From a virus: 18,390 bases of DNA. Under the pieces are notes generated by a model. The model was not told the origin of the DNA, did not search any database, and was given only the letters and a program-made list of their open reading frames with translations. The translations under genes were made by a program, and so were the position numbers. The stretch lies in the UHGV virus genome UHGV-1669119; one strand, written 5' to 3'. Each line of letters opens with the position of its first letter. Positions within the stretch are counted from its first letter, which is position 1. Positions 2,814 through 17,688 of the stretch are shown here, piece after piece.

Positions 2814-3155
2814 TTATCTTACCTTGATGCCTGATGCCGTCAGATGTTTACGACAGTCCTGAATACCTTCGTTATAACCCGCATCGTAGAAGCTATCCGG
2901 CTTTGCCTTCAGCGCAGGAAGCGTAACGCTGGTAGCTCTTCGTTCGGCCAGAACACCTGCCTGAAAGAGTGTCCACATCAACTGAACTGCTGAATCACAG
3001 TAAGTAACATCTTCACTGTACAATTCTCGTTCAATCCTGATGCCAAGTTGAGCCTTCATTGATGCGCTAATATTACCTTTGACCTGCAACGACAGGTCTG
3101 GGTACCTCTGTTCCATGAAGCTTTCAAATCTGTTGCGAACGCTGATCAGAGCCAT
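2814..3155 (-). CDS. Hypothetical protein (113 aa) between Q and the late leader
   Basis: ATG 3153-3155 with AAGGGA 6 nt upstream; 31 nt after the Q stop and in a different frame. An in-frame stop 3 codons upstream of the ATG shows it is not a frameshifted Q extension. No recognisable motifs. Confidence 0.55.
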   Translation of the reverse strand: MALISVRNRFESFMEQRYPDLSLQVKGNISASMKAQLGIRIERELYSEDVTYCDSAVQLMWTLFQAGVLAERRATSVTLPALKAKPDSFYDAGYNEGIQDCRKHLTASGIKVR

Positions 3156-3186
3156 CTGGTTCCCTTACGTGATTGATTGCTGGATA

Positions 3187-3609
3187 TTATGCCGCCGAGC
3201 AGCTCCTACGCAAAGTCCTGATAGCCTGAGGCTTTGACTGAACCGACTGATCCATTTCGAGCACCACATCCAGCATGGCTAAGCAACCGTCAATAAATCC
3301 CTCTGCCGCCTGAAGCCTCTTCAGAACGTGGGTGTGAGATACGCCGAGCTTCTCACCCATCGCCCGCACGGGCATGGCCTGGACGTAATGCCACTCAAGG
3401 AGCGTGCACAGATACGGATCTTTTTTCTTCAGGCAGCTCATAGCGGAGTTGATGATAAGACCGTCATTGTCACTGCATTTCAGCCTTCCAGACTGCGTCG
3501 CGGGTAGCAGATTCTTAAACCCGGCTGCAACAGGAGGAAAGTAGACACTACCACCTTCACTCGCTGCCCAGCCACCCCAGCGCTCTAAAACCTGTTGAAT
3601 ATTACGCAT
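3187..3609 (-). CDS. Q: Late-gene antitermination protein Q (DLP12 QuuD / phage 21-82 type)
   Basis: 140 aa; MRNIQQVLERWGGWAA...CSDNDGL...LKRLQAAEGFIDGCLAMLDVVLEMD closely parallels the QuuD-type Q sequence as I recall it (MRDIQMVLERWGAWAA...). Located upstream of the lysis cassette in the same orientation. Confidence 0.75.
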   Translation of the reverse strand: MRNIQQVLERWGGWAASEGGSVYFPPVAAGFKNLLPATQSGRLKCSDNDGLIINSAMSCLKKKDPYLCTLLEWHYVQAMPVRAMGEKLGVSHTHVLKRLQAAEGFIDGCLAMLDVVLEMDQSVQSKPQAIRTLRRSCSAA

Positions 3610-3662
3610 AGCTCTGACCTCTACGTTTTGCTACGAAAAAATTTTCTGAGAACCACGTTTGT

Positions 3663-3682
3663 TTATCCGTGGGTGTGGATAA
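3663..3682. promoter_or_regulatory. DnaA-box pair: inverted TTATCCGTG / TGTGGATAA (reverse strand matches the TTATCCACA consensus exactly)
   Basis: Plus 3674-3682 tgtggataa is the reverse complement of the DnaA box consensus TTATCCACA; an imperfect inverted copy sits at 3663-3671. Located 60 nt from the iteron cluster. Confidence 0.4.
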
Positions 3683-3796
3683 CGCAGTTCCGATTCGCTT
3701 ATTACACGCTGTTATGTGCAAAAAATTCCTTGTTCGGCCTGTACCAACCTGTACCCACCTGTACCAGCTCTTTTCAAACCTTTTCCCCAAGCGACT

Positions 3797-3809
3797 TATA
3801 TATATATAT
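3797..3809. repeat. (TA)n dinucleotide tract, candidate DNA unwinding element
   Basis: tatatatatatat at 3797-3809, centred between the direct and inverted iteron blocks. Confidence 0.85.
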
Positions 3810-3870
3810 GGGGTTCTTAGTAATTAGGTTGGTACAGATGGTACAGTTGGTACTGGCCTTTAAATTCAAT

Positions 3871-3909
3871 TAGTTAAAATGTACCAACCTCTATTTTGAG
3901 GTTGGTACA
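3871..3909 (-). terminator. Hairpin plus U-tract at the primase 3' end (minus strand); formed by an iteron inverted pair
   Basis: 12-bp perfect inverted repeat TGTACCAACCTC / GAGGTTGGTACA (3880-3909) with a 6-nt spacer overlapping the primase stop codon; followed on the minus strand by UUUUAACUAAUU. May act as both terminator and iteron pair. Confidence 0.35.
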
Positions 3910-6083
3910 GGTTGGGACACCGCCTCAAAAATTCGAGTCATTTTCCCCCCAATTCGCCTTTGGGCACGCTTATACCCGCAATTTTGCAAAACATTACTAA
4001 TTCGCATTTCTTCGCGTTTTCCGATGCGGTCAGGATTTAGCCCAATCGCATCACGCAAAACATCACTTGCGCGTAAAAATTCGCAATTTCGCGGAAGTTC
4101 ATTAGTCATCAGGTCTGGCGTGTCGAGCCATTTCTCTACCGTTTCAAGCCAAGCATCCTTGATGGTGTACTGTTCATGGACACTCGCTGCCAGTTGTTCA
4201 GCCTCACGGAACTGGATACCCCCCAGACGCTGAAACACCTCACGAGCCTCAGCCCAAAGTAAAAGGAGATCTCTTTTTATCGCTTTCACGTCGACTTTCG
4301 ACACTTCCACGGGGAGCCAGCGACGGTTACCAGTCTTGTCCGCAAGGAATTCGTCCTCATTGGTGGTACCAACGAACACCAGGCGACGAGGAAACTGGGT
4401 GGCGAACTCCCGGTATTTCGGGATCCAGTTTTCGTGAGTACGCGTCACAAACGCTTTGATTGACTCCAGCTCTTTGGTATTAAGTCCGCGCAGTTCACCA
4501 ATCTCTGCCACCAGCCGACCACGCATTTTTCGAGCGAGATCATCGTCTTTTTCGGCAAAAGAGATTTCAGTAAAAAACGCAGGATCAGGGCTCAGTGCCT
4601 CCACTCCGGAAGACTTACCGCAGCCCTGCGGACCAACGAGGATCGGCACCATATCCGCTTTGATGCCTGGCTCCAGTACTCGCCCCGCCAACGCGGTCCA
4701 CATGTACATAGACACCGCACGGGTATAAGGCGTGTCGGCGGTACCGAAGTGCGTATGGTAGAAACATTCGATGCGCGGCACGCCATCCCACTCCAGTCCG
4801 TTCAGCCAAGTGATCGCTGAATCGAATGGTTGTTCATCGGCTGCAAGTAACACCACATCGCGAATAAGTTCACGACCAACAGGTTTAAATCCCCGCTTTT
4901 CCATCGTGATGCGCAGGCGCGCATAATCCGCATCGGTGAATGCCCGCCATTGTCCGGATCCTGCAGGGGCAAACATGATTTCGTCGCGGAACTGGTCAAA
5001 GCGAATATCGATGTCCACAAAATCAGGGCGTACTACTGCTTTGGCTGCGTTGCTGATTGTTGCCTCGATACGCCCCCATTTATCACGCTCGAAAGCAGGC
5101 AGCGGTAAAGGTTCCGCCACTTCGGTGCTGGTCAGATCTTCGAAATCGTCGTTGCGGATCCCGATGGCATTAAGGAAATCTCCGTCATCACGATGCGCAC
5201 AACTGGCATGCAGGCATTTAAAATGCCCCTGCTCAAAGCCCGCGGTTCCCGCAGGAAAATAAACTGTGCTTGTTGGATCGCCCCCGCTACTGTGGCCGTC
5301 TTCAAACGGACAGCGGATATATCGTTCACCATTTGCGCCATCCAGCAGCGTCCAGCCATTGGCATCAAGATATTCAGCTGTATCATCCGTCGCGCCGGGC
5401 GTGAATGCTGATCGGTCGCGCATCTTCGTGTTGCCCGCTTCGGTGGTTACCGACACAGGGAGTTGTTCAGCCAGGCGCTGCCACAGCGTTTCAAGCTGCT
5501 CACCAGTAATAGCCGGAGGTTCATCCGGCAAACCGCCGTCCCATTCAATACGCGCGCCGCTGCTGTGCGTACCGCAGGCAACGAACTGCTGCCCGTTCGC
5601 CAGCAACTCGATAATGCCCATATCCCCCGCCAGGCGATGGATACGCTTACGGAAATCACCATCAACGGCCAGCAGATACAGACACTTATTACTGTTTGCT
5701 CGCCAGCGTCGCGGCGGCAACTCACCCAGAAGTTGCACAAGCGTTTTGCGAATATCTGCCTGAATGTCTTCATCTTCGCTATCACAGTCCAGCGCCAGCC
5801 AGCCATGGCCTGTACGCACGCAGATGCCATAATCCGGTTCATTCGACCAGCGGGCAAAATCATGCTCAGTAACAACATGCCCGGTCCATTGAGCAATACC
5901 GGTGACCTGGCGGTCCCGGTTATAGCGACTCGGCGTCTTACCCAACGCTTTCAGTTTACTATCAGGGGATATGGTCGCACTGGGGTTACATACAACTGGG
6001 AGAAGATGATCAGTTCTCCCCAATACCAGGTCGAAATGAAACCACTCATCAGGCGTAGCTCCCCATGGTTTGCTATCGGACAT
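3891..6083 (-). CDS. Replication primase/helicase-like protein: N-terminal bifunctional primase-polymerase domain plus C-terminal VirE/P-loop NTPase domain (P4 alpha-like)
   Basis: 730 aa. N-terminal prim-pol style motifs (GICVRTGHGWLALDCDSED), central Cys/His cluster (CPFEDGH...HFKCLHASCAH), Walker A VGPQGCGKSS. Start ATG 6081-6083 is 3 nt after the cro stop. Confidence 0.8.
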   Translation of the reverse strand: MSDSKPWGATPDEWFHFDLVLGRTDHLLPVVCNPSATISPDSKLKALGKTPSRYNRDRQVTGIAQWTGHVVTEHDFARWSNEPDYGICVRTGHGWLALDCDSEDEDIQADIRKTLVQLLGELPPRRWRANSNKCLYLLAVDGDFRKRIHRLAGDMGIIELLANGQQFVACGTHSSGARIEWDGGLPDEPPAITGEQLETLWQRLAEQLPVSVTTEAGNTKMRDRSAFTPGATDDTAEYLDANGWTLLDGANGERYIRCPFEDGHSSGGDPTSTVYFPAGTAGFEQGHFKCLHASCAHRDDGDFLNAIGIRNDDFEDLTSTEVAEPLPLPAFERDKWGRIEATISNAAKAVVRPDFVDIDIRFDQFRDEIMFAPAGSGQWRAFTDADYARLRITMEKRGFKPVGRELIRDVVLLAADEQPFDSAITWLNGLEWDGVPRIECFYHTHFGTADTPYTRAVSMYMWTALAGRVLEPGIKADMVPILVGPQGCGKSSGVEALSPDPAFFTEISFAEKDDDLARKMRGRLVAEIGELRGLNTKELESIKAFVTRTHENWIPKYREFATQFPRRLVFVGTTNEDEFLADKTGNRRWLPVEVSKVDVKAIKRDLLLLWAEAREVFQRLGGIQFREAEQLAASVHEQYTIKDAWLETVEKWLDTPDLMTNELPRNCEFLRASDVLRDAIGLNPDRIGKREEMRISNVLQNCGYKRAQRRIGGKMTRIFEAVSQPVPTSK

Positions 6084-6086
6084 GGG

Positions 6087-6299
6087 TTAAGCCTTTTTAT
6101 CGTTTTGTGAGCCATACAACAGCCAATTAGGGTCGCAATCCAATGCTATAGACATTTCAAGAAGATAACGTGGCCGAGCAATAACACCACTTTCAATTCT
6201 GTTTATTGCCTGCTGGCTCACTCCTGTGAGCTCAGCCAACGTAACTTGCGTCATTTTGAGTTCTTTACGTCGTTCTTTTACTCGGGTCGCTAAGGTCAT
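6087..6299 (-). CDS. cro: Cro-like HTH repressor (XRE family)
   Basis: Track ORF 6087..6317 begins at a TTG; likely ATG start at 6297-6299 with GAGGTGA upstream, giving a 70-aa protein MTLATRVKERRKELKMTQVTLAELTGVSQQAINRIESG... Divergent from the cI-like gene and similar to the N-terminal HTH of that repressor. Confidence 0.75.
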   Translation of the reverse strand: MTLATRVKERRKELKMTQVTLAELTGVSQQAINRIESGVIARPRYLLEMSIALDCDPNWLLYGSQNDKKA

Positions 6300-6317
6300 T
6301 GCTTTCACCTCATACAA

Positions 6318-6419
6318 TTTTAGTGGTATTTAGCAACAACAAACGAGGTTTGTCAAATACAACAAAAATTGTTTTTAATGTGGGGATACACATTAATACA
6401 ACCCAGAAGGACTAATCCC
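6318..6419. promoter_or_regulatory. Immunity-region operator/promoter interval (OR-like) between divergent cro and cI
   Basis: Palindromes with ACAA...TTGT half-sites: ACAAACGAGGTTTGT (6338-6352) and ACAACAAAAATTGT (6358-6373). GAAGGA Shine-Dalgarno for cI at 6405-6410. Confidence 0.5.
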
Positions 6420-7043
6420 ATGTCTCTCGCAGCCCGTTTTAAAGCACGTCGTTTGGAATTAGGAATGACTCAAGTGGAAGTAGCGAATTCTGCAGGGGTT
6501 AGCCAACAATCCATAGAATCCATCGAAAGTGGACGAACCAGAAAGCCACGCAATCTTCTGGATCTGGCTAAGGCCTTGAAATGTAGCCCAGACTGGCTAC
6601 TGAACGGTAAAAATATTATGCCTCTCGCGGAGATAAGTACCAGACGCATACCTATATTAAGTTACGTTCAGGCAGGAGAGCTTACAGAAGCAAGAGACAT
6701 AACAGATCTGACAGGGGAATTTGAATATATTTTGGCAGACTCTGACATTCCAGAAACATGCTTCGCATTACGTATCGATGGCGACAGCATGCAACCAGAG
6801 TTTAAAGAAGGAGACATTGTTATCATCGATCCTGATCTATGTCCTGCACCAGGGGAGTTTGTTGTCGCCAAAAACGACGGTCACGAAGCTACATTTAAAA
6901 AATACCGTCCATTAGGAATCGGCATCGACGACTTTGAATTAATCCCCCTAAATCCTGATTACCCTATTTTTCGTAGTGCAGATATGAACTTACAGATCAT
7001 AGGTGTAATGATCGAACACCGTATTTACCGCCGTAAACGTTAG
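6420..7043 (+). CDS. cI: CI-like repressor: N-terminal HTH_XRE plus C-terminal S24 (LexA-like) self-cleaving peptidase domain
   Basis: Track ORF starts at TTG 6369; likely true start is ATG 6420 (MSLAARFKARRLELGMTQVEVANSAGVSQQSIESIESG...). Ala-Gly cleavage motif (VQAGE), catalytic GDSM serine and downstream FKK lysine. Confidence 0.85.
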   Translation: MSLAARFKARRLELGMTQVEVANSAGVSQQSIESIESGRTRKPRNLLDLAKALKCSPDWLLNGKNIMPLAEISTRRIPILSYVQAGELTEARDITDLTGEFEYILADSDIPETCFALRIDGDSMQPEFKEGDIVIIDPDLCPAPGEFVVAKNDGHEATFKKYRPLGIGIDDFELIPLNPDYPIFRSADMNLQIIGVMIEHRIYRRKR

Positions 7044-7365: not shown

Positions 7366-7560
7366 GTGAAAACGTATAAACCGCTCAAAGGTGAATGCCC
7401 TGCTTGCCAAACACAGCTTCTGACACCAAAGCCAAAACGATACCAAATCAACGAATGTTATGAGCACTGCCCTGGATGTGGTGCTTTCCTGCATACCATT
7501 GCAACGCACTGGCGTGTCCGCTTCAACCTTGTGGTACCACGTACGCACAATACCAACTGA
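7366..7560 (+). CDS. Small zinc-ribbon protein (64 aa), first gene of the early-left operon
   Basis: GTG start with GAGGAA 7 nt upstream; two CxxC pairs (CPAC ... CPGC); basic C-terminus. Followed immediately by a strong terminator. Confidence 0.5.
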   Translation: MKTYKPLKGECPACQTQLLTPKPKRYQINECYEHCPGCGAFLHTIATHWRVRFNLVVPRTHNTN

Positions 7561-7591
7561 ATCATCCATGTAATTGCTGTGTGTAGTCTTT

Positions 7592-7617
7592 GCCCGCCTC
7601 ACGTGACGGGCTTTTTT
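7592..7617 (+). terminator. Rho-independent terminator (plus strand) after the zinc-ribbon gene
   Basis: GCCCG-cctcacgtga-CGGGC followed by TTTTTTAT (7612-7619). Confidence 0.6.
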
Positions 7618-7676
7618 ATGTCTGAAAGCGCACTCGCAACAGCGTGCTCCCCGATATGAAAAAAGGAATACAACCG

Positions 7677-7826
7677 ATGAAACCTGAACACATCCATCGA
7701 CTGACGGGGCGCGATGTTCTCCGTTATCGCCGTAAAAACTTCGATTTGATGACCGGTCTGGCCGTTGCCACTGCGCTCGGTCTGATCATCACTTTCATTC
7801 TCCTTGTAGCGAGGACCACAGTATGA
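7677..7826 (+). CDS. Small membrane protein (49 aa, single C-terminal transmembrane helix)
   Basis: Track ORF 7644..7826 starts at a GTG; ATG 7677 has AAGGAA 8 nt upstream. Hydrophobic stretch LMTGLAVATALGLIITFILLV. Stop overlaps the start of the next gene (ATGA). Confidence 0.45.
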   Translation: MKPEHIHRLTGRDVLRYRRKNFDLMTGLAVATALGLIITFILLVARTTV

Positions 7827-8725
7827 GTTTAGAAACCAGTCTAGAACTTAATAATCAACTTCTGGCACAACATAATGCGCTGCTTGAACGTCTTATCCGC
7901 ACAATGGCATCAGGCATTGTTATGCATCCTGACACGATTTCACGAGTGCAGGAATGTCGGGATACAGCAACTGAAACTGAAAATATGTCAGCGGCAATGA
8001 CACTGGATGATCTGGAGTTCAGCGACGTTATCGCACTGGCTGGTTTCTACCCGGTAGCCACCCCTATCACAGAAGACATGCTGCAACGTGCTGTTGCCTA
8101 CCGTGATGCTGAAGGCGATAAACGAGTTGTTCAGATTGATGCTCTCGACAGCGCATTGCAGGGCGTCAAACGAGCCAGGGCGCTGCTTAAACCTGCTCTC
8201 CTGGACCTGTCCCGTAACATCCTTAAGTTCTGGGACGACCTGCCAACCATCGGCGAGCGACGTGCTTTTGCCGAGCAGCTACTTGATGCACCTGCAGATG
8301 GGCGTGATGAAGTTAAGCCGAAAAAGGCCAGTAACAAAGATGGAGAACGCACGGGGCCGTTTTACGTCAAAAATGTATCCGGCACAGCAGCCAGTGAACT
8401 CCATACCTTACGCAAGTTGAACGAGATGCTTAAAAAAGGCCATATCGAGATCAACCGTGTTGAGTACCTTCAGCTGCAGGAAGAATTTGCACGCAGAGAC
8501 GCAGCAAATTCCAGCCAGAATAATGACGCCAAAGATGACCATACAATTGATTTCGCGGCACTACGCAAACAAGCTGAAGGGTTGATCCTCCAGTTAGCAA
8601 AAGGGGGTTACCGGGCAGAAGCTATTGCAATTCTGGAAAAACAGGGAGCCAGGAAACTTGGTGAAGTAACGGATGAAAATCTCGCTGAAGTAATCACCCT
8701 GGCTGAAAAAGCACTGGAGGGTTAA
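7823..8725 (+). CDS. Hypothetical protein (300 aa), acidic and predicted largely helical
   Basis: Long ORF translationally coupled to the upstream small membrane protein and ending 2 nt before the DUF2800 gene. No catalytic motif recognised. Confidence 0.55.
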
Positions 8726-8727
8726 TC

Positions 8728-10029
8728 ATGCCAGACGTTCATGCACAACTTTCTCCATCATCAGCGCATCGATGGATGCGCTGCCCAGGAAGTCTGGCGC
8801 TGGAGGCCACACAACCGGATAAAGAAACAACTTTTGCAATCGAGGGCACTGCAGCGCATGCACTTGCCGAAAAGGTGCTGCGCAACCGCCAGAGCCACCC
8901 GGAGCACTATGCAGGTTGCAACGTCGCGATGTTCCTTGGATCCTATCCTCTTGCTGAGCACCCGGATGATACTTCCGGCCCGCAGGTAGATGAGGAAATG
9001 GTCGAAGCCGTTGGTCGTTACGTCGACACTGTTTGGGCGCTGGCGCAGGGCAATGAGCTGCTGGTCGAGCAGCGTGTCGACTTCTCCCATATAACGGGTG
9101 TGGAAGAATCTTTCGGAACTGCCGACAGCATAATCATTGCTGGTAGCGAATTACAAATCCACGACCTGAAATATGGCAAAGGCGTCCGCATTGATGCAGA
9201 ACAAAATGAGCAACTACAACTGTATGCTCTGGGTGCGCTCGAACAATTCAGCATGCTGTATGACTTTGAGACTGTAAGATTATTTATTCACCAGCCGCGG
9301 CTTAACCACGTTTCAGAGTGGGCTCTGACGGTGGAAGAGCTCCAGGCGTTCGGTGAACGGGCACAGGAGGCCGCAACCAGTGCGATCCTTGTTCTCAATA
9401 TTGCTGAATGCGAAGGCATTGAGACACTACCGCTGGAAAACTTCATACCTGGAGAAAAACAGTGCCGCTTCTGTAAAGCAAAAGCTATTTGCACTGCCCA
9501 GAAAATGCAGCATTTACAAACAGCGGCCAGCGACTTTGAAGATCTGACAAAGCCTGTCAGCGAAATAATCACCAATGCCAGCGCACGTGTACCTCTGTTA
9601 ACCATTGAGCAGCTTGCGGAGATCTATAGCCAGACCGACTTTATTGAGTCCTGGCTAAAGGCAGTACGGGACCGGGTTCACAATGAACTCAATGCCGGAC
9701 ATCCGGTACCGGGGTTTAAACTGGTAACAGGAAAACAAGGTAACCGGGCCTGGAGTGATGAAGAGGCAGCTCGCGCACTTCTGAAGGACCAGTTCAGGTA
9801 CAAAACTGAAGAAGTATTCGACTTTAAACTTATTAGTCCCACAAAAGCCGAAAAACTTATCAAAAAGGCCAGTCCGCGCCGTTGGTCAAAAGTCGAGGCA
9901 CTGATAACACGAGCTGATGGTAAACCCACCGTCGTTCCCGAGTCAGACCCACGCCCCGCACTCAATATCAACCCTGTAAATGATTTCGACGACGTATCCG
10001 ACGATACGCTAACCGCAGACCTCATCTGA
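8728..10029 (+). CDS. DUF2800-family PD-(D/E)XK nuclease (Cas4/RecB-like exonuclease fold)
   Basis: N-terminal [15 protein letters not shown] signature, D...K core (IHDLKYGKG) and C-terminal cysteine cluster ([10 protein letters not shown]). GGAGGG Shine-Dalgarno. Confidence 0.7.
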
Positions 10030-10044
10030 TTTAAGGAAATCCCC

Positions 10045-10593
10045 ATGAAACTGAAGCTGAACAATGTTCGTCTGGCCTTCCCGTCTCTGTTTGAAGCTAA
10101 AACTGTAAACGGCGAAGGCGATCCGCGTTTCTCCGCAGTATTTTTAATGTCTCCCAAACACCCACAACTGGAAGAAATCCGTAAAGCTATGAAGCAGGTA
10201 GCGAAGGAAAAATGGGGGGAGAAGTGGGAGTCCATTTATAACCAGCTGGAGAAAAAACTCAATCTGTGCCTGCATGATGGTGATGAAAAAGCAGAGTATG
10301 AAGGCTTTCCCGGCAATTTCTTCCTGAACGCTGCTAACAAAGCGCGCCCAGCTGTTCTTGATCGCGATCGTTCGCCACTAATTCAGGCTGATGGACGTCC
10401 CTATGCAGGGTGCTATGTAAACGCCGTTATCGATATCTGGGCACAGGACAATAATTTCGGTAAACGCATTAATGCCTCACTCGGCGGAGTCCAGTTCCTG
10501 CGAGACGGCGATGCATTCGCTGGCGGCGGAGTGGCAAGCGCTGACGATTTCGACGATATCAGCGAAGGTGCTGATGCTGAAGCACTAATTTAA
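10045..10593 (+). CDS. DUF2815-family protein (ssDNA-binding-like partner of DUF2800 and phage DNA polymerase)
   Basis: MKLKLNNVRLAFPSLFEAK... N-terminus characteristic of DUF2815; acidic C-terminal tail (DDFDDISEGADAEALI); conserved position between DUF2800 and polA. Confidence 0.65.
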   Translation: MKLKLNNVRLAFPSLFEAKTVNGEGDPRFSAVFLMSPKHPQLEEIRKAMKQVAKEKWGEKWESIYNQLEKKLNLCLHDGDEKAEYEGFPGNFFLNAANKARPAVLDRDRSPLIQADGRPYAGCYVNAVIDIWAQDNNFGKRINASLGGVQFLRDGDAFAGGGVASADDFDDISEGADAEALI

Positions 10594-10644
10594 AAATATT
10601 CATCCCCCAGCTGCGTGCTGGGGGATCTCATGAGGGAAAGAATA

Positions 10645-11283
10645 ATGTCACAGCCCGTATTAACTAATTACCTTAAAACTCAAATCATCAATAACGCACT
10701 TGAGAAAGCGGGTATCCCCAAACGTAAATCAGCACTACGAGCTGCTCGTGTTGAATGGGCCGAACGTGTTCGGCTTGCAGCTATCGGGGGCGTAGAGAAA
10801 GAAGCTGAAATATTAAAAAATATAAAAAAAATAGAAACACTGGTATCAAAATTCCCCGAAGCATTAAAAACCGCCAATAACATTATCAGGGAAGAGTGTT
10901 ACATGTGTCTGAATCTGGCAGGTTCTCGGGTTACCGTCTATTTCAACGGTAACTACCGAGGATATGAATCAGGGTCACCAGACCATATTCACAAAATCGC
11001 GCCGGGGGAATTTACCCTTCTGGCAAATGACCCTCTAGTTACAGAGTTTTACGGGTTTGATACACTTTATGAGCAGATACAGAGCGATGAGTCAGACATT
11101 CGACAGAATGTCAGCGCTGCACTCAGTAAAGTGCGCACAGTTAAGCGCCTGCTGGAAGAGTGGCCTGAAGCTAAAGAACTTCTGCCAGCCGATGCACCAT
11201 CTGCTCCGCTTCCGCCAGCTATACGACGCGAAACTCTCAACGAAATGATCGGCCTCCCTTCTGACGAAGGGGTAGATGCTTAA
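10645..11283 (+). CDS. Hypothetical protein (212 aa) in a low-GC island
   Basis: Track ORF 10615..11283; ATG 10645 has AGGGAA 6 nt upstream. AT-rich codon usage relative to the flanking replication genes. No recognisable motif. Confidence 0.5.
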   Translation: MSQPVLTNYLKTQIINNALEKAGIPKRKSALRAARVEWAERVRLAAIGGVEKEAEILKNIKKIETLVSKFPEALKTANNIIREECYMCLNLAGSRVTVYFNGNYRGYESGSPDHIHKIAPGEFTLLANDPLVTEFYGFDTLYEQIQSDESDIRQNVSAALSKVRTVKRLLEEWPEAKELLPADAPSAPLPPAIRRETLNEMIGLPSDEGVDA

Positions 11284-11350
11284 TATTTCTTATAACAAAG
11301 GCTGGCTTAAGAAAATAGTTATCCAAACCAGCCTACCGCAATACTAAAAA

Positions 11351-11620
11351 TTAAAATTCATTGAATTTAAAAAGACATTTCCCTATTGGATTGCCATAGT
11401 CTCTACATACCGAAATGCTGTCCCATACAGGCTGAGCCAAACACCCAAGAAAGAACCCAATAAGCGCAAAAATTATAATTTTGGGAAGAACACGATCCTT
11501 AGGACCTTCTTCACGTTCGAGCCATGCGCCACCAGCCCGAACTATTCTCCCTAAAATATAAAGAATGGGGAAAGCAATAATACCTATCAATGAAAGTATT
11601 CCGATACCAAAGCTAAACAC
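11351..11620 (-). CDS. Small membrane protein (89 aa, two predicted transmembrane helices), antisense to the surrounding operon
   Basis: GTG start 11618-11620 preceded by AAGGAG at 6-nt spacing; hydrophobic segments FGIGILSLIGIIAFPILYILG and IIIFALIGFFLGCLA; low GC; convergent with the 212-aa ORF and divergent from polA. Confidence 0.55.
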   Translation of the reverse strand: MFSFGIGILSLIGIIAFPILYILGRIVRAGGAWLEREEGPKDRVLPKIIIFALIGFFLGCLAQPVWDSISVCRDYGNPIGKCLFKFNEF

Positions 11621-11676
11621 CGCCGTCTCCTTGTTTATTTACACCTACATAACCATATATCACACAAGGTTATTTT

Positions 11677-13740
11677 ATGTCCAATATACTATGGGGTGAC
11701 CTAGAAACCTATTGCGAAATCCCTATTACGAACGGTACCCATGCGTATGCCGAAGGCGTTGAAGTGATGCTGTTCGCATGGGCTATCAACGACGAGCCCG
11801 TAAACGTGTGGGATATCACTGCCGGTGGTGGTATTCCACACGGCTTATACGAAGCAATCGCAGCCCCTGAAACCCTGCTTTATTTTCATAACTCTCACTT
11901 CGACCGCACCGTCCTGCGTTATGCAATGCCGCGCCTGGCACCGCCAGTCGAACGTTGGCGCGACACAATGGTGCAGGCGCTGGCGCACGGTCTCCCGGGG
12001 TCTCTGGGGGAACTCTGCGAAGTACTAGGCGTCCCGCAAGACAAAGCGAAGGACAAAGAAGGTAAAGCGCTGATCCAGCTGTTCTGTAAGCCACGCCCGA
12101 AAAACAGCAAACTGCGCCGGGCCACCAGCAAAACCCACCCGGAAGAATGGCGGCGCTTTGTTGCTTACGCCGGACTGGATATCGAGGCAATGCGCGAAGT
12201 CTATAAACGTCTGCCGAAGTGGAATTATCAGGGGACAGAACTGGCGCTCTGGCATCGTGATCAGCAGATCAACGACCGGGGCGTCTGCATGGACATTCAA
12301 CTCGCGCGCGCTGCGATCGAAGCGGTAGACCAGGAGCAAAAGCGCCTGGCAAAGCGTACACAGGAAATGACTGATGGCGAAGTGCAGGCAGCAACACAAC
12401 GGGACGCGTTGATTAAGCACATCGTTGAATCCTACGGTGTGGAGCTACCAGACATGCAACGCAGTACTCTGGAACGTCGTATAGCCGACCCCGATTTACC
12501 ATCTGCCGTGAAAGAACTGCTGGCTATCCGCCTGCAGGCCAGTACTACCAGCACCAGTAAATACAAGGCACTGATGAAAGGCGTAAGCCACGACGGGCGC
12601 TTACGCGGTACGCTACAGTTCTGCGGGGCGTCACGTACCGGTCGTTGGGCCGGACGGCTATTCCAGCCCCAGAACCTTCCCCGCCCTTCACTAAAACAGG
12701 AACAAATAGACGAAGGCATCGAAGCACTGAAAGCCGGATGTGCAGACCTGCTGTTTGACAATATCATGGAACTAACCAGTTCAGCGTTACGTGGCTGCAT
12801 TATCGCGCCAACAGGCAAAAAACTGGTGGTAAGTGACTTGTCGAACATTGAAGGCCGTATGCTGGCATGGCTGGCGGGAGAAGAATGGAAACTGAATGCA
12901 TTCAGAGAGTACGACGCCGGAACGGGTCCGGACTTATATAAACTGGCGTATGCAAAAGCTTTCGATATTGCACCAGATGATGTTGATAAACACATGCGTC
13001 AGATCGGTAAAGTCATGGAACTCGGTCTGGGTTATGGAGGTGGTGTATCGGCTTTCATCACTTTTGCTCTGGTTTACGGTCTCGATCTCGACGAGCTGGC
13101 GAACGCCGCACTGCCAAACATTCCCCGCGATGTTATCCGCGAGGCGAAAAGCTGGTACAACGAATCGGTTAAACGTAAGTCGACCTTTGGCCTGTCCGAG
13201 CGTGTATTCATCGCATGTGACTCGCTCAAGCGCCTGTGGCGCAGGGCGCACCCGGCGACCTGCGATTTCTGGTACGAACTGGAGCGCACCGTCCGCACTG
13301 CAATCGCCACACCGCAAAAAACATTGTATTGCGGTTATCTTAAAATCCGCCGCGATGGCGCGTGGCTGCGCATACAGCTACCATCCGGACGCGCTGTATG
13401 CTACCCCTCTCCGGTTATCGAAAAAGGGAATATCACCTATATGGGTGTTAACTCTTATTCGCGTAAATGGCAACGACTCAAAACCTACGGCGGAAAGCTG
13501 GTAGAGAACGTCACCCAGGCGGCCGCCCGCGACGTTCTGGCCGGAAACATGCCGCTTATCGAAGATGCCGGTTACAGCATTGTGCTGACGGTACACGACG
13601 AGGTGATCACCGAAGCACCTGACACAGAAGATTTCAACGATAAAGCGCTTTCCGCGCTTCTCTCCACTAACCCCGAATGGGCGCCCGATATCCCACTGAA
13701 CGCTGGCGGTTTTGAGGCGTACCACTACCGTAAGGATTAA
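11677..13740 (+). CDS. DNA polymerase, family A (phage-type, with N-terminal 3'-5' exonuclease-like region)
   Basis: 687 aa; Pol A palm motifs including ...[11 protein letters not shown]... (motif A-like D...E), ...[16 protein letters not shown]... (motif B-like K...YG) and ...[11 protein letters not shown]... (motif C HDE). Confidence 0.85.
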
Positions 13741-13745
13741 TCGCT

Positions 13746-13949
13746 ATGACTGTAATCAAAACGCATACCGGAACGGTTATTACCCGCACCGGTGAAAAGC
13801 AGGTGCAATTGCATCAAAACGCGACAACGTGGGTGGCTGGCCCAAAAGAGTATTACTACAAAGACACTGGCCGCCGCGGTGGTGCTGTCGGTGTCCGCAC
13901 TCGTCTGGTGCTGAGCAGCATCCGCCCAATCGAAGCAAAGCAGGAGTAA
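13746..13949 (+). CDS. Hypothetical small protein (67 aa)
   Basis: ATG 6 nt after the polA stop, AAGGA upstream; no motifs recognised. Confidence 0.4.
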   Translation: MTVIKTHTGTVITRTGEKQVQLHQNATTWVAGPKEYYYKDTGRRGGAVGVRTRLVLSSIRPIEAKQE

Positions 13950-13954
13950 CCCCT

Positions 13955-14176
13955 ATGTCATTTAAATATCGGGACAGTCCGCTTTATTACCGGGCTGCGA
14001 GGGAGGCCTTGCGCCTTGAGCAGTCCGGCGAATATGACCGGGCAGCGAAGGTCTGGGCCAAGGCTAACCGCCAGTCACGTAACGAACTGAATCAGGACTG
14101 GAGCGAACGCCGGTCTGATTTTTGTCTGATGCAGAACATGCGCGAAAAGCGTAAGGCGGTGAGCGATGACTTGTGA
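13955..14176 (+). CDS. ANR-family-like small regulator (73 aa)
   Basis: Track ORF 13829..14176; ATG 13955 with GGAG 8 nt upstream. MSFKYRDSPLYYRAAREALRLEQSGEYDRAAKVWAKANRQSRNELNQDWSERRSDFC fits the ANR pattern as I recall it (Y..AA..A..E..G.Y..A..W..A ... W ... C). Confidence 0.5.
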   Translation: MSFKYRDSPLYYRAAREALRLEQSGEYDRAAKVWAKANRQSRNELNQDWSERRSDFCLMQNMREKRKAVSDDL

Positions 14177-14648
14177 GCAGACCATTCTTGACATGTGCTG
14201 CGGCTCTCGTATGTTTTGGTTCGACAAGGAGGACAAGCGCGCCGTGTTCAGTGATATCCGCGCCGAGCAGCATGAGCTTTGCGACGGTCGCCAGTTGGTT
14301 ATAAGTCCGGACCTTATAGCTGATTTCCGCGCCCTTCCCTTTGCCGATAACACTTTCCCTGTCGTCGTTTTCGATCCGCCGCACCTCGAGCGCGTCGGCG
14401 ATAACGCATGGATGAGGAAAAAGTACGGGCGGCTCAACAAAGAAACATGGCGCGATGATCTTCGCGACGGCTTCGCCGAAGCATTCAGGGTATTGCGGCC
14501 CCACGGTGTACTCATATTCAAATGGAACGAAACGCAGATCCCGGTAAGCAATATCTTGGCGCTGACCGACGAGAAGCCGGCCATATGGCAACGAACCGGA
14601 AAAGCCGACAAAACCCACTGGGTTATTTTCGTCAAAGGTGTGGAATGA
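14166..14648 (+). CDS. Small SAM-dependent DNA methyltransferase (N6-adenine / N4-cytosine class, DPPH motif)
   Basis: Motif I-like LDMCCGS and motif IV VVVFDPPH; 160 aa; start overlaps the ANR-like stop (ATGACTTGTGA) and stop overlaps the VRR-NUC start. Confidence 0.6.
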   Translation: MTCEQTILDMCCGSRMFWFDKEDKRAVFSDIRAEQHELCDGRQLVISPDLIADFRALPFADNTFPVVVFDPPHLERVGDNAWMRKKYGRLNKETWRDDLRDGFAEAFRVLRPHGVLIFKWNETQIPVSNILALTDEKPAIWQRTGKADKTHWVIFVKGVE

Positions 14649-14941
14649 TGGCCTACGAACGTGAAAGCCTTATCGAAAAGCACCTCGTCGCCGAAGTGAA
14701 AAAGGCTGGCGGGGTCGCCTTTAAGTTCGTGTCACCCGGTCGCCGCTCGGTACCGGATCGCATTGTCCTGCTACCCGGCGGTCGCATCGTCTTTGTCGAA
14801 TGCAAAGCGCCAAGCAAACCACCACGGCCTGACCAGTTACGCGAGCACGAACGGCTGCGCGCGTTGGGCTTTACCGTGGTGGTATTAGATAGCAAAAATC
14901 TGGAGGGGATATTGTGCGGGGAGCCTATTACAACGAAATAG
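14645..14941 (+). CDS. VRR-NUC domain nuclease
   Basis: Track ORF 14522..14941; probable start ATG 14645 (MMAYERESLIEKHLVAEVKKAGG...). PD-(D/E)XK core PDRIVLL...IVFVECKAP typical of VRR-NUC. Confidence 0.65.
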   Translation: MMAYERESLIEKHLVAEVKKAGGVAFKFVSPGRRSVPDRIVLLPGGRIVFVECKAPSKPPRPDQLREHERLRALGFTVVVLDSKNLEGILCGEPITTK

Positions 14942-15942
14942 ACCCTAACGCAGCACAATGGCTGCGTAACCTTATTGCTGCAGGTCATATCGCCCCGGGT
15001 GAAGTTGATGAAAGGAGTATCGAAGATGTCGCACCAGACGACTTGCGCGGATTCACACAGTGCCATTTCTTCGCCGGGATCGGCGTCTGGTCTTATGCTC
15101 TGCGTCTGGCCGGATGGCCGGATAACAAACCGGTCTGGACAGGAAGTTGCCCGTGCCAGCCTTTCAGCTCGGCTGGTAAAGGCGCTGGGTTTGATGACGA
15201 GCGGCACCTATGGCCAGCACTATTCCACCTCATCAGCGAGCGACGCCCTAAGCTGGTATTTGGCGAACAGGTTGCGGGAGTCAATGCCTGGTTCGATCTT
15301 GTACAAACTGACGTGGAAGCAGTGGACTACGCCTTTGGGCTTGTCCCGTTTCCGGCTGCGGGCGTCGGTGCCCCGCATATCCGAGATAGAGCGTATTGGG
15401 TGGCCGACGCCAGCGGCGAGCGATCACAGCGGTGGCGAAAGCGCCTCAATAGCATTGAGGAAGATGTCTGGAGATCGTCGACCGTCCGGCAACACGCTAC
15501 ACAGCTCCCTGCGGAATTTTGCTCACCTAGCGGGGTGGTACACCCCAACCTGCAACACAAACCCACAGCCGGAGACAAAACGCGGTCTAGAAACCTTAGC
15601 GGGACTATCCAGATTAGCGGGATGGCCGACAGTGACGACGATCGACAACAACCAAGTTCGTGCCGAGGGCGCAGCGGCCAATCATACCGAACGGGGAACG
15701 ACCCTCGGCGGCGCTGCGAGAATCTGCGGCCCAATACGATTAACGGCTGCTGGGATGGTGCTGACTGGCTCCTCTGCCGGGATGGTCGCTGGCGGCCAGT
15801 TGAATCCGGCACATGCCCGTTGGCTAATGGGATTACCTCCAGAGTGGGACGACTGCGCGCCTACGGCAACGCGATAGTCGCACCAGCTGCCGCAACATTC
15901 ATCCGCTCGTTTATGGAATGCGCAGGATACGACCTTATTTAA
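14914..15942 (+). pseudogene. DNA cytosine-5 methyltransferase whose central segment (about 15396-15860) lies in a different reading frame from its N- and C-terminal motifs
   Basis: Frame 1 (GTG 14914, GGAGG upstream) carries motif I FFAGIG, motif IV PCQPFS, motif VI-like GEQV and motif [11 protein letters not shown], then after about 15860 motif X YGNAIVAP. Motif IX ([16 protein letters not shown]) and the repeated GWPTP-type motifs are in frame 2 (track ORF 14975..15877). Both frames are stop-free, so a 342-aa polypeptide is still encoded. Confidence 0.55.
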
Positions 15943-16259
15943 TGCCACTCACATCTGGCATGATACCGTCCAGAAGGTAATTGCTTATATACAACGGAGC
16001 CGCCCATGGCATAAGTATAAGCATGAAGTTTTGTCCAGAAGTCCCCATAAACTAGTATTGGGGCTAAAAATTTTGGATCGCTAACCATAGATGTAGCAGG
16101 AAGCTCGAAACCTTTAGAAAGAATGTTTACCAGTGAAGGGTAATTTTCAAAATCAGTGCTATTCCCGCCCACCTCTAAAGCATCCAGTTCAAAGTCGAGC
16201 ACTCCACCATTTTTGTAATACTCCGGAACAGTTAACCCTGATGTTAACAAAGTAGCCAT
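15939..16259 (-). CDS. Hypothetical protein (106 aa) in a low-GC island, antisense to the flanking genes
   Basis: ATG 16257-16259 with AGGAGG 8 nt upstream; island 15943-16290 is visibly AT-rich (roughly 40% GC by eye) against GC-richer neighbours; stop overlaps the C5-MTase stop. Confidence 0.5.
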   Translation of the reverse strand: MATLLTSGLTVPEYYKNGGVLDFELDALEVGGNSTDFENYPSLVNILSKGFELPATSMVSDPKFLAPILVYGDFWTKLHAYTYAMGGSVVYKQLPSGRYHARCEWH

Positions 16260-16293
16260 TAAACAATCCTCCTGAATTTTAAAGGGTTACATT

Positions 16294-17688
16294 ATGCCCA
16301 AAGTTTTCACGCCTCGCCCCTACCAAGATCTAATTATCAACCACGAAATCGACATTCACCGCTGCAACATCTGGGCAGGGATGGGGATGGGTAAAACCGT
16401 AGCGACACTCACCACGCTGGAAGATCTTTTCATGGCGGGCTCAGAGACACAGCCCGCGCTGGTCCTCGCGCCCCTACGCGTTGCAGCAAGCACATGGCCG
16501 GATGAAGCGCTGAAATGGGGGCATCTGCGCAATATCGAGGTGCAGCCGATTGTTGGTAACGCCAAAGCACGCTCTGCAGCGCTGGCGAACAGCAACGCGA
16601 GCGTGTTCACCATCAACTACGATAACCTTGTCTGGCTGGTTGAGGAATTGGGAGAACGATGGCCGTTCGGTACTGTCATTCCAGATGAAAGCACCCGGCT
16701 AAAATCCTTCCGGCTGCGAGGTGGTGGTAAGCGCGCGGCGGCGCTGGGCAAAGTGGCGCATAAGTATGTCCAGCGCTGGATAAATCTCACCGGTACGCCA
16801 GCACCGAACGGCCTGGTAGATTTGTGGGGACAATTGTGGTTTGTGGACCAGGGGCAACGTCTCGGGCGCACTTACGGCGCGTTTACCTCACGCTGGTTCA
16901 ACTCGATACAGTTTCCGGGGCAGAGCTGGACCAAACTGGAGCCGTTTGCTCACTCACATGCTGAAATACAGCGAGCGTTAGCCGATGTGACCCTCTCGCT
17001 GGATGCGGCCGACTGGTTCGATATCAAAGACCCCATCCATAACGTAATCCGCGTGGATATGCCGCCGAAGGCCCGTCAGCAGTATCGTGAAATGGAAAAG
17101 GAAATGTTCCTCGAGCTGAACGGCGAAGGCATCGAAGCACCAAACGCCGCGGCAAAGACACTGAAGTGTCTGCAAATCGCCAGTGGCGCAGTATACACAG
17201 ACGACACCGGAAGTTGGTCAGAACTGCATGACACCAAACTACAAGCGCTGGACAGCATACTGACCGAAGCAGCTGGCGCACCTGTGCTGGTTGCTTATCA
17301 CTGGAAACACGATCTTGAACGCTTGCTTAAAGCATTCCCTCGCGGTCGTCACCTCGACCAAGATCCACAGACACTGCGCGACTGGAATTCCGGAAAGATT
17401 CCTGTTCTCTTTGCACACCCAGCCAGCGCGGGCCACGGTCTGAACATGCAGGACGGCGGAAACATACTGGTATTTTTCTCACACTGGTGGGACCTGGAGC
17501 AGTATCAGCAAATTATTGAACGTATCGGCCCCACCAGGCAGATACAGGCCGGACACAATCGTCCGGTATTTATTCACCACATTATTGCGGCCGACACTAT
17601 GGACGAAATGGTGATGGAGCGGCGCAACTCAAAACGAACAGTGCAGGACATCCTGCTCGATGCCATGAAAAAGAGAGGTATAGCATGA
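16294..17688 (+). CDS. SNF2-related DEAD/DEAH-box helicase (phage replication/recombination helicase)
   Basis: 464 aa; Walker A GMGKT, motif II VIPDESTRLK, helicase C-terminal motifs; commonly co-encoded with DUF2800, DUF2815, PolA and VRR-NUC. Confidence 0.8.
   Translation: MPKVFTPRPYQDLIINHEIDIHRCNIWAGMGMGKTVATLTTLEDLFMAGSETQPALVLAPLRVAASTWPDEALKWGHLRNIEVQPIVGNAKARSAALANSNASVFTINYDNLVWLVEELGERWPFGTVIPDESTRLKSFRLRGGGKRAAALGKVAHKYVQRWINLTGTPAPNGLVDLWGQLWFVDQGQRLGRTYGAFTSRWFNSIQFPGQSWTKLEPFAHSHAEIQRALADVTLSLDAADWFDIKDPIHNVIRVDMPPKARQQYREMEKEMFLELNGEGIEAPNAAAKTLKCLQIASGAVYTDDTGSWSELHDTKLQALDSILTEAAGAPVLVAYHWKHDLERLLKAFPRGRHLDQDPQTLRDWNSGKIPVLFAHPASAGHGLNMQDGGNILVFFSHWWDLEQYQQIIERIGPTRQIQAGHNRPVFIHHIIAADTMDEMVMERRNSKRTVQDILLDAMKKRGIA

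Follow-up and report, generated by a model that had tools for sequence, protein, structure and literature searches.

The 18,390-nucleotide virus genome UHGV-1669119, analyzed here as a whole (the window), most probably contains, at positions 3740-3919, the origin from which an APSE-like temperate phage, a prophage of Escherichia coli, replicates. The element overlaps the end of the gene for a 730-aa protein that combines a primase-polymerase (PrimPol) domain, a VapE helicase, and a C-terminal winged helix. It is best read as an origin of the type served by the self-loading helicases of Staphylococcus aureus pathogenicity islands (SaPIs) and other phage-inducible chromosomal islands (PICIs), and not as an origin of the P4 alpha type, because the closest solved relative of the protein is SaPI1 Rep, whose origin shares the same design. 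What is new here is the location of a known kind of origin in a phage group where it had not been located previously; no earlier description of this origin was found in the literature searched, a search that did not take in the 1999 APSE-1 paper. The origin is thereby placed for a widespread and unstudied group of temperate phages with relatives across the Enterobacterales, among them the APSE phages that underlie the defensive symbiosis of aphids.

The Iteron Array and Its Proposed Initiator

Nine copies of the 10-bp iteron TGTACCAACC with at most two mismatches, four direct and five inverted, are found within 3740-3919 (Table 1), at the positions claimed for them in the initial annotation; three of the nine calls need two mismatches. 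The cluster stands out by several measures. With at most one mismatch, six of the seven sites of the window lie inside these 180 bp, and none of 200 shuffled sequences reached seven sites (mean 0.88 per whole window). When two mismatches are allowed, the array holds nine of 19 sites, the remaining ten being scattered across 18.2 kb. A scan for repeated 9-mers per 200 bp, made without knowledge of the motif, ranked 3701-3950 at the top with seven sites; every other segment had four or fewer, and nearly all had three or fewer.

The 13-nt TA tract described earlier as flanked by iterons is likewise present. The ACC ends of the left triplet face it, and the GC content is 33-38% over 3760-3920 versus about 45-60% in the flanks. 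The third iteron group extends into the initiator gene, with I8 and I9 encoding residues 722-728 of the 730-aa protein, and the TAG stop codon of this gene (minus strand, 3891-3893) lies inside the I7/I8 inverted repeat. The initial annotation had described a 12-bp perfect palindrome over the stop; the stop is indeed enclosed, but by a 12-bp inverted repeat with a 6-nt spacer. No Rfam family matched the origin region at E <= 1, and no tRNA was found in it.

Table 1. Elements of the proposed origin and neighboring genes in the window (mismatches to TGTACCAACC in parentheses after each iteron)
Feature	Position	Strand	Description
Left triplet I1-I3	3740-3769	+	TGTACCAACC at 3740-3749 (0), TGTACCCACC at 3750-3759 (1), TGTACCAGCT at 3760-3769 (2); 10-bp period
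Spacer motif AAACCTTTTCCCC	3776-3788	+	Between left triplet and TA tract; family consensus TTCTAACCTTTCC
TA tract (TA)6T, TATATATATATAT	3797-3809		13 nt; symmetry center of the two triplets; proposed DNA-unwinding element
Right triplet I4-I6	3827-3854	-	Inverted copies at 3827-3836 (0), 3836-3845 (2), 3845-3854 (2); 9-bp period
AT-rich spacer	3855-3879		ATTCAATTAGTTA at 3864-3876, similar to the integration host factor (IHF) consensus, one mismatch to WATCAANNNNTTR
Third iteron group	3880-3919	+/-	I7 at 3880-3889, + (0); I8 at 3900-3909, - (0); I9 at 3910-3919, - (1)
Inverted repeat I7/I8	3880-3891 / 3898-3909		12-bp arms, 6-nt spacer; encloses the primase stop
Initiator gene	3891-6083	-	730 aa: PrimPol, VapE helicase (similar to superfamily 3, SF3), C-terminal winged helix
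Codons of wing beta-hairpin	3921-3974	-	Residues 704-721, YKRAQRRIGGKMTRIFEA
Q-leader hairpin	about 3649-3691, then U6 at 3636-3641	-	DnaA box is the 5' arm of the apical stem
Q antiterminator	3187-3609	-	Pfam Phage_antitermQ, 5e-42; downstream neighbor of the origin
cro	6087-6317	-	Early rightward operon, before the 730-aa gene
LexA-like cI	6369-7043		Divergent from the rightward operon
Leftward operon after cI	7823-17688	+	First gene, 7823-8725: 300-aa protein without Pfam family

The 730-aa protein contains a VapE-like domain (Pfam, 2.3e-60), and its homologues have the PF09250 Prim-Pol domain at the N-terminus; the N-terminal part of an AlphaFold2 model was matched by Foldseek to the primase-polymerases of pRN1 and NrS-1. 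Its VapE helicase is homologous to SaPI1 Rep (PDB 7PDS), as detected by phmmer (8e-34) and by Foldseek, which matched the whole Rep chain (1e-17), and SaPI1 Rep is its closest solved relative. Modeled alone, the C-terminal ~95 residues gave a predicted local distance difference test score (pLDDT) of 74 and a predicted template modeling score (pTM) of 0.61; a profile of this domain found no sequence matches in the PDB. The predicted fold consists of a helix, a strand, two further helices, of which the last spans residues 689-701, and a beta-hairpin with strands 704-711 and 714-721. Helix 689-701, of sequence KREEMRISNVLQNCGY, is nearly invariant among homologues. The variable residues sit in the predicted beta-hairpin 704-721 and therefore form the wing, which is proposed as the specificity determinant.

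Conserved Layout and Exchanged Iterons

For comparison, 23 loci from species-representative genomes and 80 loci from IMG/VR were gathered, of which about 100 in total were usable. They come from prophage variants of E. coli, Yersinia phage YeP4, and the APSE phages of Hamiltonella, and also from Xenorhabdus, Photorhabdus, Providencia, Arsenophonus, and one metagenome-assembled genome (MAG) of Burkholderiales. The layout is common to these loci: three direct iterons, the motif TTCTAACCTTTCC, a (TA)n tract followed by GGGG, three inverted iterons, a spacer of ~25 bp, and finally one direct and two inverted iterons over the stop codon. The offsets between iterons are nearly fixed (10,10 | 67 | 9,9 | 35 | 20 | 10 bp), and TATATATA is kept at the TA tract in most relatives. 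The APSE phages entered this comparison unexpectedly, when a distant DNA search matched their non-coding region; they have the gene order of the window (cI, cro, VapE protein, intergenic region, Q), together with its iteron (GTACCAACC), a TA tract, and a hairpin across the VapE stop codon.

In this fixed frame the iteron sequence itself is exchanged. About 14 iteron sequences occur among the ~100 loci, and all copies in a locus change together, as is characteristic of sites recognized by a single protein. Variants from E. coli that are ~79% identical to the window over this stretch keep the flanks and the central spacer, and all of their iterons are TGGAACCACC; YeP4 has TAGACAACC iterons in an identical arrangement. 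The positions of I1-I3 are filled by another iteron sequence in relatives, and the position and orientation of I4-I6 are kept. Within the iteron, C6 and A8-C9-C10 are invariant among the loci, and positions 2-5 and 7 vary.

Several other features of the relatives were observed on the way. The motif TTCTAACCTTTCC is kept over all Enterobacterales iteron types and in the Burkholderiales MAG (about 30 origin types, including that of locus L012); being constant across iteron types, it must therefore have a reader different from the variable wing, and it may be a start site of priming or unwinding. The IHF consensus WATCAANNNNTTR occurs in the spacer before the stop-codon hairpin, perfectly in seven of 34 representative origins and as near-matches in many; the spacers listed for such a match are those of loci L008, L016, L021, and L064, APSE L001, and Arsenophonus L020, and in the TGGAACCACC group this IHF-like spacer is replaced by a GC-rich sequence. 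The IHF-like site is an optional feature, at which IHF may bind. Expanded arrays of 11-12 iterons were found in L028 (Photorhabdus caribbeanensis), L105, and L106, with additional copies lying either upstream of the left triplet or in the terminal 3' part of the helicase gene; therefore, the number of iterons is not fixed at nine.

In loci L013-L022, L028, and L029, the match to the 730-aa query starts only at residue ~307-316, and in Photorhabdus, Xenorhabdus, Providencia, Morganella, and Arsenophonus the helicase, winged helix, and origin are joined to a different N-terminal (primase) domain. An exact scan of IMG/VR for iteron dimers returned 37 loci; in all 11 of those that have a cluster of at least six iterons the primase gene is present as well, and the remaining loci are isolated hits due to chance. 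Origin-only parasites, that is, elements with the iterons of the window and without a primase, were not found in IMG/VR, with one apparent exception. In an unrelated small phage (contig 3300009715_000223 of IMG/VR, locus L143), positions 3570-3795 contain four related iterons of either orientation, GGTTGGTACA / GGTTGGAC, which surround an AT-rich stretch and are situated between the gene for a stand-alone 529-aa VapE helicase and the gene for a primase with PrimPol and zinc-ribbon domains. The locus follows the replicon logic of the window, with helicase and primase on separate genes, and extends the theme to split replicons.

Covariation of Iteron Type with the C-Terminal Wing

The proteins of the window and of the DEC5B and IAI1 prophages share 98% identity; apart from scattered single substitutions, they differ mainly in the last 17 residues, GGK-MTRIFEAVSQPVPTSK in the window versus GGK-KCKVWEPLEPRGTT in DEC5B and IAI1. 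The tail KMTRIFEAVSQPVPTSK accompanies iteron TGTACCAACC in the window type, and the tail KKCKVWEPLEPRGTT accompanies iteron TGGAACCACC in the DEC5B type. More generally, each C-terminal signature corresponds to one iteron type: [MV][TV]RIFE to TGTACCAACC, KMRIFE to TGTCCCAACC, K[CS]K[VLI]W to TGGAACCACC, LMKVW to TGTTACCACC, QQR[IV]F to TAGACAACC, and QIRVWV to TAGACCACC; the only exception is VCRVWE, which occurs with two types. Across 3321 pairs of distinct loci, the sequence identity of residues 703-721 predicted a shared iteron type with an area under the curve (AUC) of 0.93, versus 0.60 for the helicase core. Only 20% of the pairs with at least 95% core identity share an iteron type, and the same iteron type is seen down to 72% core identity. 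The most strongly associated columns are residues 715, 716, and 708, whose codons lie outside the iterons.

The phage repressors cI and Cro were considered as alternative readers of the iterons and rejected, because the immunity type is decoupled from the iteron type: the cI proteins of the window and DEC5B are nearly the same although their iterons differ, and DEC5B and IAI1 have the same iterons with cI proteins that are only 26% identical. The iteron type thus follows the last ~25 residues of the helicase, the predicted wing, and neither the remainder of the protein nor the repressor type.

It is plausible, although we hold this with somewhat less than even confidence, that specificity resides in a self-contained and exchangeable cassette made up of the origin and the last ~17-25 codons of the helicase; some 14 or more initiator/iteron pairs on a near-identical scaffold would then be orthogonal to one another, with the wing, not the recognition helix, as the discriminating element. 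Because part of the binding site itself encodes the tail of the protein, recombination cannot easily separate the reader from the site. If such a cassette exists, related prophages and iteron-copying satellites could coexist or compete in one cell, and a ready-made set of orthogonal replicons would be at hand. The natural series of iterons and wings provides in any case a cheap and direct handle on DNA discrimination by winged helices, and could supply orthogonal replicons for engineering.

Proposed Mechanism and Position of the Origin

The following scheme of initiation is suggested. Upon derepression, the rightward operon, comprising cro and then the gene of the 730-aa PrimPol-VapE helicase, would be expressed, and the C-terminal winged helix of the helicase would bind the 10-bp iterons. 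The near-invariant recognition helix probably reads C6, A8, C9, and C10 of the iteron, and the variable wing (residues ~704-721) probably reads positions 2-5 and 7. The two triplets, opposed over (TA)6T and helically phased, would bring two helicase rings head to head, and the AT-rich center beneath the paired rings would melt. The helicase would load itself without a separate loader and prime with its own PrimPol domain, and the family-A polymerase and the Enc34-type single-stranded DNA-binding protein (SSB), both encoded by the phage in the leftward operon, would carry out the extension. The third iteron group over the stop codon would serve as an auxiliary binding site, and its RNA hairpin may, in this lineage, additionally limit read-through in the direction of Q.

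A number of points weigh against this interpretation. The repeat architecture, its conservation, the covariation of iterons with the wing, and the homology to SaPI Rep are established observations; from them we infer the binding, the melting, the origin activity, the assembly of a double hexamer, and the division of recognition between helix and wing. Residues 722-728 covary with the iterons trivially, because the iterons encode them. The codons of the wing are only 2-55 bp from the nearest iteron, so the covariation could partly reflect linkage in a recombining cassette and not functional coupling. The loci are phylogenetically related, and the pair statistics therefore overstate the number of independent events; some other phage protein, encoded outside the compared segments, may also covary with iteron type. 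The APSE phages have the iteron of the window and the wing VCRVWE, which resembles the wings of other groups more closely; a simple residue-to-base code therefore does not exist. Finally, the public record of APSE-8 (LR794148.1) marks a "putative origin of replication region" elsewhere, between cI and cro (1265-1365 of locus L002).

The last point raises the possibility that the true origin lies outside the array, for example between cI and cro or within a gene, and that the array is an auxiliary site similar to crr of P4, or a handcuffing or copy-control site. P4 itself offers a precedent, since its iteron-bearing crr is located just downstream of alpha and its ori 2 kb upstream. We nevertheless regard this explanation as highly improbable. 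The APSE-8 annotation is the output of originX, which relies on skew and was built for chromosomes; no second cluster of iterons or of other 9-mers exists in the 18-kb window, where one stray iteron with a single mismatch was found at 15533; and the array holds the full feature set of a SaPI/PICI origin, including the central AT-rich element. APSE-8 also possesses an iteron array downstream of its VapE gene (about 3850-4140 of L002), which is unannotated in the public record.

Comparison with Known Replication Systems

The origin of SaPI Rep is situated immediately downstream of rep and contains six to twelve iterons and an AT-rich center, with at least two iterons on each side of the center in opposite directions; the C-terminal winged helix of Rep recognizes the iterons, and a loader is not needed (PMC9371898). 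The same origin design is found in PICIs of E. coli, where dependence on rep and ori was demonstrated, and the authors considered this organization to be shared by no other known replicon (PMC6092414). As far as sequence can test it, the window element has every feature of a SaPI/PICI Rep-ori system, yet in a complete phage and not in a satellite. The array lies at the 3' end of the initiator gene and overlaps it (stop codon at 3891-3893); opposed iteron sets (3740-3769 versus 3827-3854) surround the AT-rich region at 3797-3809; the initiator is a Rep-homologous VapE/SF3-like helicase with a C-terminal winged helix; and the cognate specificity between the C-terminal domain and the iterons is seen by covariation only, with the caveat of linkage given above. 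The satellite character, that is, the lack of structural or lysis genes, is not shared, as the window contains lysis genes, a small terminase subunit, PolA, and SSB. The element would thus work like a PICI replicon but is not a PICI. The presence in complete phages of an origin design that was called unique to PICIs bears on the source of satellite replicons.

The likeness to SaPI1 Rep1, SaPI5 PriRep5, and the pri-rep-ori region of the E. coli island EcCICFT073 includes the VapE-type self-loading helicase with its C-terminal winged helix, the short opposed iterons around an AT-rich center immediately 3' of the initiator gene, and the iteron/initiator specificity that differs between elements; SaPI5 in addition has its primase fused to the helicase. 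Unlike these islands, the window element belongs to a full-size temperate phage with its own PolA and SSB, its iterons are 9-10 bp and not 5-6 bp long, and it has a third iteron group, which extends over the stop codon and provides the codons of the protein tail. A further difference is that the specificity predicted from sequence resides in the wing (the last ~25 residues) of an otherwise near-identical scaffold.

The initial annotation had taken the array for an origin bound by the adjacent alpha-type primase/helicase, in the manner of P4. An origin served by the phage's own primase is retained, in agreement with the conserved layout, the swapped iterons, and the covariation of the wing, but the alpha-type assignment is not. 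Homology to P4 alpha was rejected, since the best BLASTP match had an E-value of 0.71 and the profile of the C-terminal domain had no sequence match in the PDB. The resemblance to P4 is one of organization: primase, helicase, and a C-terminal origin-binding domain in one polypeptide, short iterons in both orientations, and an iteron-bearing crr with a putative terminator just downstream of the gene. In contrast to the single cluster of the window, P4 requires both ori and crr, which are separate elements, ori being located about 2 kb upstream of alpha. The primase domain of P4 alpha is DnaG/Toprim-like, unlike that of the 730-aa protein, which belongs to the PrimPol/archaeo-eukaryotic primase (AEP) type.

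In phage lambda the origin also overlaps the initiator gene, an AT-rich region adjoins the iterons, the early rightward transcript crosses the origin, and the iterons and the DNA-binding part of the initiator co-vary among related phages, giving rise to replication-specificity types. However, lambda O is unrelated to the 730-aa protein and recruits host DnaB through P, and its iterons of about 19 bp lie in the middle of the O gene and are read by the N-terminal domain of O, whereas here the C-terminal wing of a self-loading helicase would be the reader. ORF904 of pRN1 and the protein of phage NrS-1 have the same combination, detected by Foldseek, of an N-terminal PrimPol fold and an SF3-type helicase, but they are proteins of an archaeal plasmid and a deep-sea phage, respectively, and the relation is distant and at the level of fold only. 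We know of no comparable iteron origin for either of them.

The DnaA Box and Transcription toward Q

A perfect DnaA box had been counted as a part of the origin architecture in the initial annotation. The box is present (TGTGGATAA at 3674-3682, reading TTATCCACA on the minus strand), but it lies 58 bp outside the iteron array and is not conserved. It is restricted to the E. coli-type Q leader, and among the E. coli variants with that leader it is invariant; the homologous Q leaders of related phages have degenerate sequences at this position (CGTGGGTAA, CGTGGTTAA, and CATAGGTAA), and relatives with the same origin but a different downstream gene have no DnaA box. At least one perfect box occurred in 23 of 200 shuffles of the window, which corresponds to a chance probability of about 0.12. 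The DnaA box was therefore rejected as a conserved component of the origin, being absent or degenerate in relatives and compatible with chance.

These data also bear on the possibility of a DnaA-dependent origin, in which host DnaA, bound at 3674-3682 and at a half-match at 3663-3671, would be needed for opening or for recruitment of the helicase. The pairing of the perfect TTATCCACA with an inverted TTATCCGTG so close to the iterons, and the invariance of the box where this leader is present, would be in line with such an origin. Its distribution in relatives and its frequency in shuffled sequences argue to the contrary, as does its position within a transcript hairpin whose basal stem, and not the box, is conserved. 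Moreover, a self-loading helicase-primase, a polymerase, and an SSB are encoded by the phage itself, and SaPI-type Reps do not require a host initiator (PMC9371898). A role of DnaA is thus very unlikely, and the SaPI/PICI-type origin remains the preferred reading.

The hairpin in question, in the leader of Q, has an 11-bp basal stem that is kept in ten leader variants through one-sided changes; compensatory double changes were not seen in the stem among these ten variants, and the fold of the 126-nt leader is not unusual (z = -1.1). With this modest support, the hairpin and the following U6 are a probable attenuator or terminator upstream of Q and not a conserved origin element. The phage is without an obvious N-like antiterminator.

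A second terminator-like structure coincides with the stop codon of the initiator gene, where positions 3880-3909 on the minus strand form a 12-bp stem followed by a UUUU tail. A hairpin at this place is universal among the relatives because of the inversion of the iterons, but only 25 of 67 distinct relatives, none of them in the large TGGAACCACC and CTAGACCACC groups, have a T-rich tail behind it; a terminator role is therefore not a conserved property of the origin. The suggestion of the initial annotation that the palindrome terminates primase transcription and couples replication to Q agrees with the terminator-like appearance in the window; any such coupling would be at best lineage-specific. 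A consensus scan of 3100-4300 revealed no sigma-70 promoter, so there is no evidence of a separate Q promoter inside the origin.

It was also considered whether the array might serve mainly for transcription control between the replication gene and Q, with the timing of late genes set by termination or pausing at the hairpin or by the bound C-terminal domain of the primase acting as a roadblock or autoregulator, and with origin function absent or secondary. The exact coincidence of the hairpin and TTTT with the primase stop, the location of the array between the early operon and Q, and the putative terminator directly behind alpha in P4 would fit this explanation. We consider it unlikely: the terminator scan gave one site, which is at the level of shuffled sequences (1.2 +/- 1.3); the T-rich tail is distributed as described; relatives without a downstream Q retain the full array; the six further phased iterons around the TA tract would be superfluous for a terminator; and a separate, better conserved hairpin with U6 lies nearer Q.

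Phage Context

The prophage of the window is 100% identical in E. coli 97-3250 and other strains, and of 5426 complete E. coli genomes, 140 contain a match to a 441-bp stretch that surrounds the origin, among them genomes of pathotypes O26, O111, O103, and O55. Its relatives are phages of 35-45 kb, such as YeP4 and APSE, with head and connector genes present in relatives such as YeP4. The intergenic region from the 730-aa gene to Q is 281 bp long, and Q is followed on the minus strand by genes for a holin, an endolysin, a spanin, and the small terminase subunit. The leftward operon encodes a DUF2800/PD-(D/E)XK nuclease, the Enc34-type SSB, a protein with the nucleotide-modification-associated domain Nmad5, the family-A DNA polymerase, and further a SAM methyltransferase, a C5-cytosine methyltransferase, and an SNF2 helicase. 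The phage thus supplies most of a replisome itself, and the presence of PolA, SSB, a nuclease, and an SNF2 helicase of its own is in keeping with an autonomous replicon. DNA modification is possibly encoded by the phage as well.

Just downstream of cI, positions 7512-7621 (plus strand) gave a full-length match to the small RNA RprA (RF00034), which at 50.5 bits is below the gathering threshold of 70 and has an E-value of 6e-4 for the whole window. Its 3' half (AAUUGCUGUGUGUAGUCUUUGCCCG...CGGGCUUUUUU), containing the target-pairing region and the terminator, is almost identical to the consensus, and the 5' half is diverged. RprA-like DNA of this kind is present in 179 E. coli genomes, and the 3' half is found also on plasmids; the locus may encode a phage-borne mimic of RprA.

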